Positions 3,352-62,689 of a DNA stretch of 64,000 bases are shown piece by piece. Position 1 is the first letter of the stretch, and each line of letters opens with the position of its first letter. The stretch is taken from contig NC_085846.1 of NCBI RefSeq assembly GCF_035594765.1, forward strand, positions 10,775,190 through 10,839,189, written 5' to 3'. The stretch comes from Anolis carolinensis (lineage: Eukaryota). Below the pieces are notes generated by a model. That model did no database searches, was not told the origin of the DNA, and worked only from the letters and a program-made list of their open reading frames with translations. A program made the position numbers and the translations under genes.

Positions 3352-3860
3352 CCTTGGGTTGCTGTGACTTTTCTGGGCTCTATGACCATGTTCCAGAAGC
3401 ATTTTCTCCTGATGTTTCACCCACATCTATGGCACCTCTCAGAGGTTGTGAGGTCCGTTAGAAACTGGGTAAGTGGGTTTATATATGTGATGAATGTCCA
3501 GGGTGGGAGAAACAACCAGGAAGTAACCAGACTTTGAAGCTGCAAAGCTATTCAATACTAATCAAGGTGGCCAATTGCAATATTGTGAGGTCTGCTGGAA
3601 ACTATGGCAGGCAACTTCAGAAATGCTAATCAAAGGGACCAATTGCATTCACACTTGCCCCCAACAGACAAGAGTTCTTTCTTCCATCCTGGGCATATAT
3701 AAACCCCACTTGCCTTATCTCCAACAGATCTCACAACCTCTGAGGATGCCTGCCATAGATGTGGGTGAAAGGTCAGAAGAAAATGCATCTGGAAGATGGC
3801 CATACAGCCTGGAAAACTCACAGCAACCCAGTGATTCCCGAAAAATCCTTTGACAACAAA
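3352..3860. mobile_element. inverted pair of Penelope-like fragments
   Basis: Minus copy about 3352-3580, plus copy about 3620-3860. Confidence 0.75.
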
Positions 3861-3868
3861 TAGATTCA

Positions 3869-7600: not shown

Positions 7601-10600
7601 ATAGGGCTGGTCCCTCAGCAAACTAAGTCTCTCATGAGTCTATGGTATTGTTCCATGGCAGTGAAAGTGGTGCCAAACTACAGTAATTCTACAGTGTAGC
7701 TGTACCATTTTTGACAAAAACCATTACTGATGACACTCAAGTGTGAATGTTGCAATTGGCCACCTTGATTAGCATTGAATGCCCTTGCAGCTTCAAAGCC
7801 TGGCTGCATGAGGTTTATATATTCCATAGCTATATATATTTGCCTAGTTTCCAACAAACCTCACAACCTCTGAGGATGCCTGCCATAGATGTGGGTGAAG
7901 CATCAGGAGAGAATGCTTCTGGAACATAGCCATACAGTCCAGAAAACTCACAGCAACTCATTTGACATTGGTTACAGGTTATGCCAAAACCTTCAACCTC
8001 AACTCATCATTTTTGCTACTGACTCTGGATACATCTACTCTGTAAAATTAATGCAGTTTGGGCCAATATAATTGAGCCAAGGCACTTTACTGCCTTGGCT
8101 CAATGCTATGGGATCATGGCATTTGAAGTTTGGTGAGGCGCCGGCACTCTTTGGCAAAAAAAGGCTGAAGACCTTGGAAAACTACAGCTCCCCATGTTGT
8201 GTAGCTTCAAACAATGGCAGTTAAAGTGGTGTCAAACTGCATTCATTCAGCAATGTAGATGCACTAGTAGAGTCCCATTTCCAAGATATCTCATTATGTA
8301 TATATGCAAATTTAGGAATGTCAAAATCCATAATAACAAATCATCATTGAAAACAGTCATTGTAGATCACATATGCACAACCTATATTGAGTTTTGGAAA
8401 TTTTCTGCCCAAAAGTAGATCAAAAAGTTGCTGCTGGTTACCTACGCCCGTGACCAGGACCCAGGCTTGAGGTGGGTGTTCAGCCCCAGCAATGGCTTTT
8501 GCCAAGGCTTTTGTGGTCTCTATCCGGCTGGCGACCACCTCCTGGCGAAAGGATTCACTCCATCTGCAGGAGCAAGACAAATAGTCAAGGAGTCGCATCT
8601 CATATTATTTGGTTCTCTACTCCAAAACAAAAGAGCAACGGACCCCACCACTATTTATTATTATCCAGCTTTTCTCCTTACCTGGGATTCAAGATAGCTT
8701 ATAATTATTTAAACAGGCATGGGCAAACTTTGGCCCTCCAGGTGTTTTCGACCAACTCCTGGTAGGCTGTTAGGAATTTTGGGAGTTGTGGAGCGCCAAA
8801 GTTTACCCATGCCTGGCATAACTATATGTATACTATAGAATTAATACACCTTGAAAATACATTACCTGCCATGTCTCAATGCTATGGAATTGTGGAGCTG
8901 TAGTTTGTTGAGGCTCCAGCACCTTTTAGTAGAGAAGGCCAGATAAAATTGCAACCCCGATGATAGCATGGAGCCATGGCTATTAAAAGTGGATTCAAAC
9001 TGCATTAATTAATTCTACAGTGTAGTTGCCCTCTATGGTACTTGTGATTGCCAAATTCCAGACCCTGTACAAACTTGGCCAGTAGTGAAATAATGGGATG
9101 GAAAAAACCATAAAATCTTATCAACAATCCCCTCCCATATTTTTTCCAAGTGCGGATGGACTTACCTTCGGAGGGGGTTGAGGACATTTTCTCCAGAAAG
9201 GTTGACCACACCTTCACAAGGAGGGAGCCCCAAGCGGGAAAGTTCATCCTGGGGAACACAGATGGAGAAACACAATAGTAACAGAGAAAAAAGGCTTTAC
9301 ACTGGGTCAACTTGACCAATACGGGCAACTGTCGTTCTGCTAATTTTCAGCCTGGATTTTGTCCTCCTGATGGCTCTAATTAAGCACACTTCATTCAAAA
9401 CCAGAAATGATCTGGTGTTTTCAGGAAAGAAGTTGCACTTGTCACTCCAAAGGCAAGCAGTTCAGTGTTCTCTGGGTACATCTACACTGTAGAATTGATG
9501 CAGTTTGACACCATCTTAGAATAATAGAATTGGAAGAGACTACATATATAAATAAAATATAAATACTGCAAATACATAAATAAATACATTGGCCATCCAG
9601 TCCAACCTCCTGCCATGCAGGAAAAGTACGATCAAAGCATCCCCGACAGATGGCCATTCAGACTCCAAAGAATTGCCAATCTTTTAATTGCTTCAAGGTA
9701 CATTTTATATGGCTCTGTATACACTGACCATTCAATGCAGTTTCAAACCAGTATTGAAGGAAACGGCTTCGCTGTGCAGATGATTACATCGCAAATCCCA
9801 GAACTAGTCTGAGACTGATTATATATACCAAAGGGCATTGGTGCACACTCTAGTCTTTCTTTCGTGCCCTTTTGTGGGAATTTGTTGTCAGGTTGCTACA
9901 GTTTGAAGCTAACTTTGAACTGCATTAAATACTCAGTATAGATGGGGCCACAGTTCCAGGTAGAATCAAAGCCCACGCCACATACCCAGGTAATTCGGTT
10001 CTTTCCGGGACTGCGGGAAACCAGGGTAACTTCATGGCCTCGGTCCTTCAACAACCGGGTTAAGGCTCTGCCAACAAATCCAGTCCCACCACCTAATCAA
10101 AATATAGGTATGTAATTCATAAATGGCATCAATGCTGATCAAGGTGATCAATTGCAACATTCTCGCTTGCCTCGAACACACAAGAGTTCTTTCTCCCACC
10201 CTGGACATCATCCCACAGATATGTAAACCTCACCTGCCTAGTTTCCAACAGACCTCACAACCTCTGAGGATGCCTGCCATAGATGTGGGCAAAACGTCAA
10301 GAGAGAATGATTCCGGAACATGGCCATACAGCCTGGAAAACTCACAGCAACCCAGTGATTCCAGCCATGAAAGTCTTCAACACCTTCAACTCATCATTTT
10401 TTTCTACTGACACTGTATGCATCTAAACTGTAGAATTAATGAAATTTTGGCCAATCTCATTCAGTCAAGGCACTTTACTGTCTTGGCTCAATGCAATGGG
10501 ATTGTGGAATTTGTACTTCTGTGAGGTACCAGCACTCTCTGGCAGAAAAAGACTAAAGACCTTGGAAAACTAAAGCTCCCAAGGTTCCATATCTTTGAAC

Positions 10601-10978
10601 AATGGTAGTTAAAGTTGTGTCAAACTGCATTTATTCAGCAATGTAGATGCATTAGTAGAGAGTCCCATTTTCGAGATATCTCATTATGTATATATGCAAA
10701 TTTAGGAATTACAAAATCCATAATAATATAATCATCGAAAACAGTCATTGTAGATAACTTATGCTCAACCTGTATCGAGTTTTGGAGTTTTTCTGCCCAA
10801 AATTTGCTTCAAAGGTTGCTGCTCCTCGTGCCAATCAAATTACAAATCCAAATCTAATACAGTGTTGTTTTCTTTTGCCAATAAAAACAATGAATGCTTA
10901 TTCTATTTGCAAAACAACATCAAACCCTTTGCATACATGAAACTTGTTCCTAATCCACTCACCTACTAACACTCTCAT
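4267..10978 (-). CDS. SDR39U1: SDR39U1 epimerase-family short-chain dehydrogenase/reductase, 6 coding exons, 295 aa
   Basis: Exons 10963-10978, 9986-10092, 9166-9248, 8442-8563, 5541-5684 and 4267-4682 join with GT-AG sites in consistent phase (888 nt). Protein MRVLVGGGTGFVGRALTRLL...PWIHVADLAG...LLEGQRVEPKRTL matches SDR39U1, with a Rossmann GxxGxxG motif. Confidence 0.95.
4784..4965. mobile_element. PIF/Harbinger-like palindromic MITE (high-copy family)
   Basis: TTA-GGGTGCATCTACACTG...AATTAATGCAGTTT; further copies near 1520, 1802, 3100, 7486, 8025, 8830, 10415, 37248 and 59590. Confidence 0.6.
5541..5684 (-). CDS. SDR39U1: SDR39U1 exon 5
   Basis: cag|YYRPSHTTKYTEDSPGGDFDFFSRLVTHWEAAAQIPGEVTRQAVVRS|gtgagg. 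Confidence 0.93.
5713..5766 (-). mobile_element. L2-like LINE/SINE 3' tail
   Basis: GTAAGCCGCTCCGAGTCCCC...GGGGTACAAAA plus microsatellite tail; sibling copies near 2400, 5380, 21580, 21870, 26140, 33000, 35395, 61735 and 62325. Confidence 0.55.
7738..7958 (+). mobile_element. Penelope-like fragment with inverted piece
   Basis: Family similarity; 7738-7805 is reversed. Confidence 0.7.
8442..8563 (-). CDS. SDR39U1: SDR39U1 exon 4
   Basis: cag|WSESFRQEVVASRIETTKALAKAIAGAEHPPQAWVLVTGV|gtaacc. Confidence 0.93.
9166..9248 (-). CDS. SDR39U1: SDR39U1 exon 3
   Basis: cag|DELSRLGLPPCEGVVNLSGENVLNPLR|gtaagt. Confidence 0.93.
9986..10092 (-). CDS. SDR39U1: SDR39U1 exon 2
   Basis: ttag|GGTGFVGRALTRLLKDRGHEVTLVSRSPGKNRITW|gtatgt. 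Confidence 0.93.
10125..10382 (+). mobile_element. Penelope-like 3' fragment
   Basis: Family similarity including the hammerhead-like segment at 10261-10301. Confidence 0.75.
10963..10978 (-). CDS. SDR39U1: SDR39U1 coding exon 1 (MRVLV-G)
   Basis: ccATGAGAGTGTTAGTAG|gtgagt. Confidence 0.9.
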
Positions 10979-11560
10979 GGTTAAAGCAGGATAGCCGCGC
11001 ATGCGCAGAGAAGCTTTCTGACAGCCACCAGGAACACAGACTTGGAGAAAAATTAGAGAATCACAAAAAACATACTCTGAAGTAAGCGAATTGGAGTTAA
11101 TCTATTTTTCATAGATCTGTGGCTCCGTTTGAGAAACATTTGTTTTTATAAACGTAAGAACTTAATTCCTCAGCCAGGTCGTTTCAGTGATTTTTAAAAA
11201 GTGATTTTTACTCCCAAATTCCCATTAGGCAAACTGTAAATGAAGAATTTACTTAATTCTGACATTTGGACTTCAGTTCCCACAATCCCTTGTCATTGGT
11301 TAAAAGCAGCTGAGGCTTCTGGGAGTTGAAGTTCCAAATGGATAGATGGACAAAAATCTTGAAATTTTTAGTTTTTTTCATGGATAAAGATTACAAAAAC
11401 TAAATGGTTTTTTTTAATCATTTTAGGCTTAAAACTGAGAAAGCCTCGGAGTTCCGAACATAAAGACGCCTGTTAAACTGGAGACTCTTGAGTGACGTCA
11501 GCCGGTAGCAGGAAGTACTGAGTGGAGCCAAACAGGAAGTGACGCAGCCGGGAGGAGAAG
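10979..11560. promoter_or_regulatory. divergent (bidirectional) promoter between SDR39U1 and EMC4
   Basis: NRF1 palindrome GCGCATGCGC 10997-11006; CRE TGACGTCA 11493-11500; ETS CAGGAAGT 11509-11516; ETS/CRE composite CAGGAAGTGACGCA 11533-11546. Confidence 0.75.
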
Positions 11561-11587
11561 AAGAAGAGAGAAGACAAGGCTCGACCC
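11510..11587 (+). other. EMC4: EMC4 non-coding exon 1 (5' boundary approximate)
   Basis: Donor CCC|gtgagt at 11588 just after the promoter motifs; matching acceptor ttttcag| at 12554 upstream of the ATG. Confidence 0.65.
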
Positions 11588-11660
11588 GTGAGTCCAAACA
11601 GATCACTCTTTGCGATCATTCATTGAAAGGACCCGGTGCCTGTGATATGTATTAGTATTT

Positions 11661-12515
11661 GTAATGTGTTGTCGAAGGCTTTCTTGGCCGGAATCACTGG
11701 GTTGCTGTAAATTTTCCAGGCTGTATGGCCATGTTCCAGAAGCATTCTCTCCTGACGTTTCGCCTGCATCTGTGGCAGGCATCCTCAGAGGTTGTGAGGT
11801 CTGGTGGAAACTAGGCAAATAGGGTTTATATATCTGTGGAATGTCAAGGATGGGAGAAAGAACTCTTGCCTGTTTGAGGCAGGTGTGAATGTTGCAATTG
11901 GCCACCTTGATTATCACTGAATAGTAATTTCAAAGCCTGGCGAATTCATGCCTGGGGGAATCCTTTGTTGGGAGGTATTAGCTGGCTCTGATTGTTTCAT
12001 GTCTGGATTTCCCCTGTCTTCCAAGTGTTGTTGTTTATTTATTGTCCTGATTTTAGAGTTATTGAATAAGGGTAGCCAGATTTTGTTCATTTTCATGGTT
12101 TCCTTCTTTCTGTTGAAATTACCCACATGCTTGTGGATTTATTGATTCTCTGTGTAGTCTTGACATTATGGTTGTTAGAGTGGTCCAGCATTTCTGTGTT
12201 TTCAAATAATATGCTGTGTCCAGGTTGGTTCATCAAGTGCTGTGCTATGTCTGGACCACTTACACAGAAAGAATTACCCCAGGCAGGAAGCAGCCAGGCT
12301 TCGAAGCTACAAGGCCATTAAATGCTTATCAAGATGGCCAATTGCAGCAATCATACTTACCTCAAACAGACAAGAGTTCTTTCTTCCACCCTGGACATTC
12401 CACAGATATATAAACCTCACAACCTCAGAAGATGCCTGCCATAGATGCAGGCGAAATGTCAGGAGCAAATGCTTCTGGAACATGTCCATACAGCCAGGAA
12501 AACACAACAACCCAG
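11661..12515. mobile_element. Penelope-like element, inverted pair in EMC4 intron 1
   Basis: Minus copy 11661-~12230 carries degenerate C-terminal GIY-YIG-region coding sequence (...NFNRK.ETMKMNKIWLP); plus copy ~12270-12515. Confidence 0.8.
11751..11791 (-). ncRNA. minimal type I hammerhead ribozyme motif (Penelope-associated), intact core
   Basis: CCU-CUGAGGA-U-GCCUGC-cacagau-GCAGGC-GAAA-CG-UC-AGG: helix I CCU/AGG, 6-bp helix II, catalytic core, GUC cleavage triplet. Confidence 0.7.
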
Positions 12516-12584
12516 TGCTCAGGTTTGTATTGTTTTCTTGATGTTGTTTTTCAGGGCCTCTCTGCATATCTTTGGCTGGGAAAG

Positions 12585-14872
<2,288 letters not shown>

Positions 14873-15113
14873 CCCAACTCAAAAACCAGTGACTGCGTTA
14901 AATGTCTGGATCACAGGATGTCCTTCTCTCATTCATCCTGATTCCCTCATAAAGCTGCCAATTAAGTGGACACTGCTGCGCTAAGGGAGACGAGATGACA
15001 AAGGCAGAGACTAAAGGAGCAGACTGCAAAGGACTGATACGTTCTGCATGGGGAGAAGCAGGAGGCTCTTCCTGTCAGGTTTTTTTTCACCTTTCCCCCT
15101 CTGTTGAAAGTGG

Positions 15114-16159: not shown

Positions 16160-16712
16160 TTGTGTTGTCGAAGGCTTTCATGGCCGGAATCACTGGCTTG
16201 CTGTGAGTTTTCTGGGCTGTATGGCCATGTTCGAGAAGCATTATCTCCTGACATTTCATTCACATATATGGCAGGGATCCTTAGAGGTTGTGAGGTCTGT
16301 TGGCATGAGTGGGGTTTATAAGTCTGGAATGTCCAGGGTGGGAGAAAACTCTTGCCTGTTTGAGGCAAGTGTGAATATTGCAACTGGCCAGTTTGATTAG
16401 CATTGAATGGCCTTGCTGCTTCAAAGCCTGGCTGCTTCCTGCCTGGGGGAATCAAACGACATTATTTCAAAAACAATTGAAAAGTGTTGCAATGCTAATC
16501 AAGGTGATTAATTGCAATATTCACACTTGCTTCCAACAGACAAGAGTTCTTTCTCCCACCTTGGACTTTCCACAGATATATAAACCTCACTGACTTAGTT
16601 TCCAATATACCTCACAATCTCTGAGGATGCTTGCCATAGAAGTGTCTGAAACGTCAGGAGAGAATGCTTCTGGAAATGGCCATGCAGCCCGGAAAAATCA
16701 CAGCAACCCAGT
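16160..16712. mobile_element. inverted pair of Penelope-like fragments between the EMC4 and SLC12A6 3' ends
   Basis: Minus copy 16160-16450, plus copy 16490-16712. Confidence 0.75.
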
Positions 16713-60259: not shown

Positions 60260-60752
60260 ACAGGTGGAATGTCCAGAGTGGGAAAAAGAACTCTTGTCTG
60301 AGGAAAGGTGAATTTTGCAGTTGGCCTCCTTGATTAGCACTGAATGGCATTGCAGCTTCAAAGCCTGACTACTATCAGTATTAAAAAACTCTAAATCTGG
60401 ACAATAAATAAAGCACAACACTCAGAAAACAGTGGAATTCCAAACAGGAAACAATCAGAGCAACTAACACCTCCCAACAAAGGATTCCCCCACATAGGAA
60501 GCAGCCAGGCTTTGAAGCTGCAAGGCCATTCAGTGCTAATCAAGCTGGCCAACTGCAACTTTCACACTTGCTTCAAACAGACAAGAGTTCTTTCTCCCAC
60601 CCTGAACATTATTCCACAGATCTATAAACCCCACTTGCCTAGTTTCCAACAGACCTCACAACCACTGAGGATGCCTGCCATAGATGTAGGCGAAACGTCA
60701 GAGAATGCTTCTGGAACATGGCCATACAGCCCAGAAAACTTACAGCAACCCA
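60260..60752. mobile_element. Penelope-like element with inverted 5' piece
   Basis: Minus 60260-60367, plus 60380-60752; hammerhead core CTGAGGA...GAAACGTC at 60665-60699. Confidence 0.75.
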
Positions 60753-62473: not shown

Positions 62474-62605
62474 TTGTCGAAGGCTTTCATGGCCAGAATC
62501 ACAGGGTTGTTGTGAGTCTTCTGGGCTGTATGGCCATGCTCCAGAAGCATTCTCGCCTGATGTTTCACCCACAACTATGGCAAGCATCCTCAGAGATTGT
62601 GAGGT
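62474..62605 (-). mobile_element. Penelope-like 3' end
   Basis: Reverse complement of the family 3' end with hammerhead-like segment 62556-62596. Confidence 0.7.
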
Positions 62606-62689
62606 ATGAAATAATACACCTCACAACCTTTAAGTGAGACTCTATATTAAAATACATTGAACACAATTTTCAGGGGGGGGGACCCAATA

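Follow-up and report, generated by a model that had tools for sequence, protein, structure and literature searches.

Minimal hammerhead ribozymes are thought to act as dimers paired via a palindrome in helix III, and Lunse et al. have reportedly observed dimer cleavage of such hammerheads. Amniotes are also said to carry ultraconserved intronic hammerheads, known as HH9 and HH10. The minimal type I hammerheads (min-HHRs) of Penelope-like elements (PLEs) were defined by Cervera and de la Pena in 2014 (PMC4209133). According to the accessible part of that paper, none of them is active as a monomer and activity as dimers is low; the hosts that this part names include turtles and snakes, not anoles.

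The closest described system was found in the green anole. Frangieh et al. (2024; PMC11167929) characterised the element Poseidon_Ac (PAc) together with its ribozyme, and we rely here on the accessible sections of their paper. In these sections, cleavage by the ribozyme follows GUC, at a point 26 nt beyond the start codon. Either C3G or G8C abolishes cleavage, the double mutant gives a partial rescue, and no cleavage occurs in vitro without the element's protein. The same sections state that the Poseidon_Ac family is expressed and that PAc insertion in vitro is independent of ribozyme cleavage.

Here, we focus on a hammerhead in a 64,000-nt stretch of Anolis carolinensis DNA (contig NC_085846.1, positions 10,775,190 to 10,839,189), referred to below as the window; its features are collected in Table 1. 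The hammerhead lies in intron 1 of EMC4, a gene identified by a Pfam match on a later exon (PF06417, E 6.2e-21) and with its ATG at position 12585. Downstream EMC4 exons are joined, as exon 1 is, in contigs of three sequencing runs; the runs were taken as RNA by guess, and the splice joints agree with RNA. Spliced contigs show that removal of intron 1 persists despite the insertion, and the intron minus the insertion measures about 110 nt. The opposite-strand gene with an ATG at 10979 is presumably SDR39U1, and the motif lies antisense to EMC4, about 770 nt upstream of this start codon. The observed/expected ratio of CpG is 0.85 at 11401-11600 vs 0.28 across the window. The GCGCATGCGC just 5' of the minus-strand ATG and the TGACGTCA and CAGGAAGT repeats 5' of EMC4 exon 1 (10991-11003, 11490-11550) are what we take to be NRF1, CRE and ETS motifs. 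Such motifs are found in housekeeping promoters. Short inverted-repeat elements at 11260-11343, 13195-13273 and 13809-13966 have below-threshold Rfam microRNA matches and very many contigs; they are likely MITE- or SINE-type repeats rather than microRNAs.

Table 1. Features of the window discussed in the text.
Feature	Position	Strand	Evidence or description
Likely first coding exon of SDR39U1	10964-10979	-	ATG, MRVLV and GT donor in sequence; last exon matches DUF1731 (E 1.5e-16)
EMC4 exon 1, non-coding, 5' end undefined	11533-11587	+	Spanned by contig 26 of run X7, which joins it to 12555
EMC4 intron 1, 967 nt, in 5' UTR; 856 nt are insertion	11588-12554	+	GT..AG joint in run X7 contig
Left arm: 5'-truncated Poseidon (frameshifted end of GIY-YIG region, pLTR, hammerhead, ORF start, tail)	11663-12253	-	78.9% identity over 596 columns to 3' end of the L186 element
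First 120 nt of Poseidon ORF, ending with Penelope 'tail'	11663-11782	-	ATG at 11782; homology ends at +120
Minimal type I hammerhead, intact, predicted cut 11754/11753	11751-11791	-	Core letters, palindrome, 6/6 helix II pairs, 3/3 helix I pairs; 38/41 nt vs PAc
Right arm: inverted, shorter, without tail	12268-12518	+	Inverted repeats of 89, 100 and 43 nt
Second hammerhead, EMC4-sense, damaged	12423-12463	+	U4A; palindrome ACGU changed to AUGU
Nine further pLTR hammerhead copies, all damaged, several inverted pairs	1117-1312, 3355-3861, 7821-7960, 10149-10382, 16161-16712, 60379-60752, 62474-62608		

A sequence-only reading of this DNA had proposed an intact minimal hammerhead within a Penelope element, on the SDR39U1 strand and about 160 nt downstream of EMC4 exon 1. 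Our pairing and core check bears this out: the motif has all the defining letters of a minimal type I hammerhead, lies inside a Penelope pLTR and starts 163 nt past the end of exon 1. Read on the minus strand from 11791 to 11751, it consists of CCU (helix I), CUGAGGA (the CUGANGA core box), an extra U after A9, GCCUGC (helix II), the loop CACAGAU, GCAGGC (helix II), the second core box GAAA, CG, UC and AGG (helix I). Helix II is Watson-Crick throughout with G10.1-C11.1 closing, CCU and AGG are fully complementary, and both the UH cleavage site and the helix III palindrome ACGU are present. With C17 at 11754, this copy would be expected from its sequence to cut after GUC at the position given in Table 1. 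The motif is not a product of chance, since the intact-core pattern has 15,195 exact matches in the genome (1.85 Gb) vs 0 for the reversed control. Likewise, a generic minimal-hammerhead descriptor gave 14 matches, all of one family, in 101 stretches (1.064 Mb including 30 kb of N), and 0, 0 and 0 matches in its controls (one reversed, two shuffled). The earlier reading had also suggested a search with the Rfam hammerhead models: Infernal returned 14 matches at E<=10 in positions 9000-15000 of the window, none of them a hammerhead, likely because helix III is absent.

The motif is part of a two-arm inverted, truncated Penelope/Poseidon insertion (11663-12518). Truncated/inverted arms and a one-sided tail of 30-40 bp, which mark Penelope/Poseidon insertions, are both seen here, and the accessible part of PMC8557442 gives inversion of an arm, with the tail confined to one side, as the usual Penelope layout. 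The ATG of the Poseidon ORF coincides with A9-U-G10.1 of the ribozyme. Relative to the left arm, the right arm is identical in 211 of 277 columns, with a 25-nt deletion. Over the ribozyme part the left arm ranks first among matches to the right arm (91%); over the upstream part it is outside the top 7. Judged by these sequences, a single origin of both arms is likely. Homology stops at +120 in the left arm and at about +87 in the right one; for copies elsewhere the end points are +118 to +120 or roughly +82 to +87 (the loci partly overlap and the counts are not independent). In Poseidon_Ac, initiation of reverse transcription is placed 111-118 nt into the ORF (PMC11167929, accessible sections). 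At EMC4, reverse transcription would have begun about 118 nt into the ORF, gone back through the pLTR and ended early, and the inverted second arm would have been added after this early stop. No target-site duplication is evident by eye at the insertion, and there are no direct repeats in 11000-13200, that is, none of the head-to-tail structure of non-LTR retrozymes. The right junction is spanned by contigs from two studies (runs X1 and X15); at the left one, contigs reach 29-30 letters across, slightly below the tool threshold. Among the joints listed for four runs, one of which may be the assembly's source, no insertion-skipping joint points to an empty allele; contigs show presence only.

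A near-full-length Poseidon element is found at L186 (G000:C6:13666500-13675500). Its 833-aa frame matches RVT_1 (E 1.6e-13) and has a visible GVYRIP..YIG motif, with no Pfam score for GIY-YIG. The inverted partner of L186 has a 624-aa frame and a hammerhead with G8A, a layout like that of the EMC4 insertion on a larger scale. Five reading frames of the insertion gave no Pfam match to GIY-YIG or RT because its fragments are short and frameshifted. Of 10 genome matches to PF01541, none carried a hammerhead of the Poseidon family and one (L158) carried a short ORF-start piece. A different element with RT, GIY-YIG and a Cys-rich linker (L159, G000:C3:264454086-264457343) is likely of the Neptune type.

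Given the number of intact cores genome-wide, the intact copy at EMC4 is not special in itself. Its GCAGGC helix II variant has 236 exact matches, and matches with both CpGs allowed to decay number 32,770. To describe the family, we used an unselected, coordinate-based sample of stretches in which chromosome ends and the window region weigh more heavily; from 100 matches, 67 spanning the motif and its flanks were kept and 33 shorter ones dropped. Among the other copies in this sample, the core is kept in 31 of 66, the palindrome as well in 12 of 66, and every intact feature in 6 of 66. The non-CpG divergence of the EMC4 copy (3.9%) lies at the lower quartile of the family, whose median is 5.2%. 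It also keeps four of the five family CpGs, each of which is lost in about half of copies; a neutral cause, the CpG-rich neighbourhood on the promoter side, likely explains this retention. Two helix II pairs that are wobbles in most copies are Watson-Crick in the motif, a joint variant found in 3 of 65 other copies and in both arms of the EMC4 insertion. At the three positions where PAc differs from the motif, the PAc letters are the family majority in the sample. In the window, the EMC4-intron copy is the sole fully intact one of 11 and has no intact same-strand dimer partner, the other minus-strand copies (near 3.4, 16.3 and 62.6 kb) being damaged.

Signals of covariation and selection are slight. 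Both-side changes in helix II occur in 1 of 396 cells (66 copies by six pairs), a count confounded by the youth of the family, the overlap with coding sequence and the decay of CpGs, and the helix II variants in the sample are mostly wobbles or CpG decay. Little covariation is expected here, since this is one young family, and all the more since helix II doubles as the beginning of the ORF. Genome-wide, the ribozyme-killing changes G5A and G8A are found in 186 and 216 copies vs 295 for the free change G7A; dead copies accumulate at a similar order, as in post-insertion decay. Mild selection acting on source elements, or else the sequence context, could account for the 1.4-1.6-fold excess of G7A at the free site. 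At the C11.1-G12 CpG, tolerated TG exceeds lethal CA by 27 to 13 (p 0.04), TG being a synonymous change too. Substitutions are fewer in the core than in the flanks (26/721 vs 261/4304, p 0.007), a difference that is not robust (p 0.11 without columns more than 15% variable; Mann-Whitney p 0.14). Across the family, evidence of selection on the core is weak. As for the broken sense-strand twin in the right arm, it fits chance as well as selection against pre-mRNA cutting, and a single case cannot separate the two.

Predicted folding depends on the right arm. In whole-intron folds of either strand, both motifs are predicted to lie in the inter-arm duplex with a helix II probability of 0.0; in modelled transcripts without the right arm this probability is 0.95-1.0. 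Helix I has a predicted probability of 0.0 in all four folded contexts. For the isolated 41-mer, an alternative hairpin that pairs CUGA with UCAG is predicted at -17.0 kcal/mol vs -10.8 for the monomer hammerhead, and the active-type dimer layout at -22.1 vs a cofold minimum of -37.4; these nearest-neighbour energies take no account of core tertiary contacts. For the EMC4 copy to cut, a minus-strand RNA with its start anywhere from 11792 to about 12260 would have to meet a second hammerhead in trans and, probably, the protein of the element. A protein-free cleavage assay of the motif could give a false negative. On the sense strand, folding predicts 230 long-range pairs for EMC4 pre-mRNA with the insertion, an extended duplex that may be a substrate for A-to-I editing.

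EMC4 pre-mRNA carries the damaged hammerhead, not the intact one, and ordinary upstream-antisense RNA would begin at the EMC4 promoter, to the left of 11533, and bypass the motif. Contigs from other repeat copies swamp the insertion, and motif-matching contigs of 35-59 nt are unassignable to the EMC4 locus. Among the contigs, which carry no strand or ends, there is no evidence of a minus-strand transcript through the motif, and none of those listed is spliced from the insertion to SDR39U1. The sequence-only reading had called the motif a potentially active ribozyme and had overlooked both the inverted twin and the high copy number. The intact motif stands; the local significance implied for it is weak, considering that the family is published, that thousands of its copies are as intact, that PAc did not cleave without protein, that the window holds no intact same-strand partner and that whole-intron pairing is predicted.

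Taken together, the motif is the terminal-repeat hammerhead of a truncated PAc-type Poseidon insertion, and very probably a passive relic here, one that rarely or never cuts. Its core would have stayed intact by chance, perhaps aided by low methylation near the CpG-rich promoter. Some features weigh against the relic reading: no other copy in the window is fully intact, most family CpGs are retained, two helix II pairs are Watson-Crick where wobbles prevail, the sense twin is the damaged one, and helix II is predicted to form once the right arm is left out. An unlikely alternative is that the EMC4 copy is competent and is occasionally cut in rare antisense/pLTR-driven RNA, with a trans partner and Poseidon protein and without an effect on the host genes. 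This would agree with the intact defining letters, with the helix II predicted for transcripts lacking the right arm and with a family that is expressed and whose ribozyme cleaves when the protein is supplied (PMC11167929, accessible sections); moreover, pLTRs may contain promoters (PMC6765202, accessible part). Yet no locus-specific minus-strand transcript is seen among the strandless contigs, helix I is not predicted in any folded context, the window offers no intact cis partner and, as far as the accessible sections of PMC11167929 report, RNA-seq ends at the PAc cut site were not found even family-wide.

Far less probable is co-option, in which the ribozyme cleaves a pLTR-driven antisense RNA or an upstream leader of SDR39U1 and thereby tunes the EMC4/SDR39U1 divergent promoter. 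The closeness to EMC4 exon 1, the intact core and CpGs, and the presence of the insertion in data of at least two studies, the listed joints revealing no empty allele, all speak for it. However, such a position is likely by chance given thousands of intact copies, CpG retention fits the promoter-side neutral cause, and no contig among those listed is spliced to SDR39U1. An extended version deserves equally little credence: the left-arm pLTR would be an antisense promoter in EMC4 intron 1 whose transcript is cut at 11754/11753 using the partner and protein of expressed Poseidon copies, such that transposon activity tunes the divergent promoter and the sense twin has been selected dead. Finally, the hammerhead look could stem from the start codon and coding sequence of the ORF, with no ribozyme behind it, given that the motif is coding from A9 on (MPATDAGETSG) and that helix II hardly covaries. 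We give this virtually no weight: the CUGANG box sits 5' of the ATG, and the loss of PAc cleavage in C3G and G8C and its partial return in the double mutant (PMC11167929, accessible sections) refute it at the family level.

Read as a passive relic, the EMC4 copy adds one to the many copies of a ribozyme-bearing retrotransposon already in the literature. This family and its ribozyme have been described before; the EMC4 copy itself is not named in the literature found, and a literature search gave nothing connecting a hammerhead ribozyme with EMC4. The wider value lies in numbers. With over 15,000 intact cores, a single vertebrate genome allows a test of depletion/breakage among sense-oriented intronic copies, which, if true, would be an indirect sign of minimal ribozymes cutting in vivo; the EMC4 locus alone gives no answer.

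Elsewhere in the genome, hammerheads of the Poseidon family also form head-to-tail arrays: six intact units at 141 nt (L033-L038, G000:C1:60536521-60537260), four units at 220 nt of which three are intact (L015-L018, G000:C1:1063399-1064093), three units at 203 nt (L029) and four units at 173 nt (G000:C1:2664324-2664877). In the 141-nt unit, the frame is open from its ATG. By their arrangement, these arrays match the definition of non-LTR retrozymes and cis dimers could form in them. They are better test objects than the EMC4 copy for these two reasons.

How, then, does the EMC4 copy compare with known systems? HH9 and HH10 are likewise hammerheads in introns of amniote genes; they are canonical, single-copy and deeply conserved with a full helix III, whereas the motif is minimal and sits in a young repeat. 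Animal non-LTR retrozymes (bioRxiv 10.64898/2026.07.22.740005, accessible text) also derive from PLE pLTRs and carry a type I hammerhead, but they are head-to-tail tandems and the EMC4 copy is an inverted pair; the words 'Anolis', 'anole' and 'lizard' are absent from the main text of that source as accessible. With the metazoan PLE min-HHRs (PMC4209133, accessible part), a long helix II, a short helix I, the extra nucleotide 9/10.1, G10.1-C11.1, a palindromic 15.2-16.2 and the pLTR location are all shared, and those hammerheads are, like the EMC4 insertion, mostly single or in opposite-strand pairs 100-700 bp apart; helix I has 3 bp in the motif vs 4-5 bp in the Schistosoma families. The closest relative is PAc, as described in the accessible sections of PMC11167929. 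In contrast to PAc, the EMC4 copy has a U-to-C change in loop II and Watson-Crick pairs in place of two helix II wobbles, and it is truncated and non-coding. The two agree in 38 of 41 nt (compared by eye), in the ATG at the start of stem II, in the place of the cut, reported for PAc and predicted for the EMC4 copy, 26 nt beyond the start codon, in a tail end at about +118 and in the ORF start downstream.
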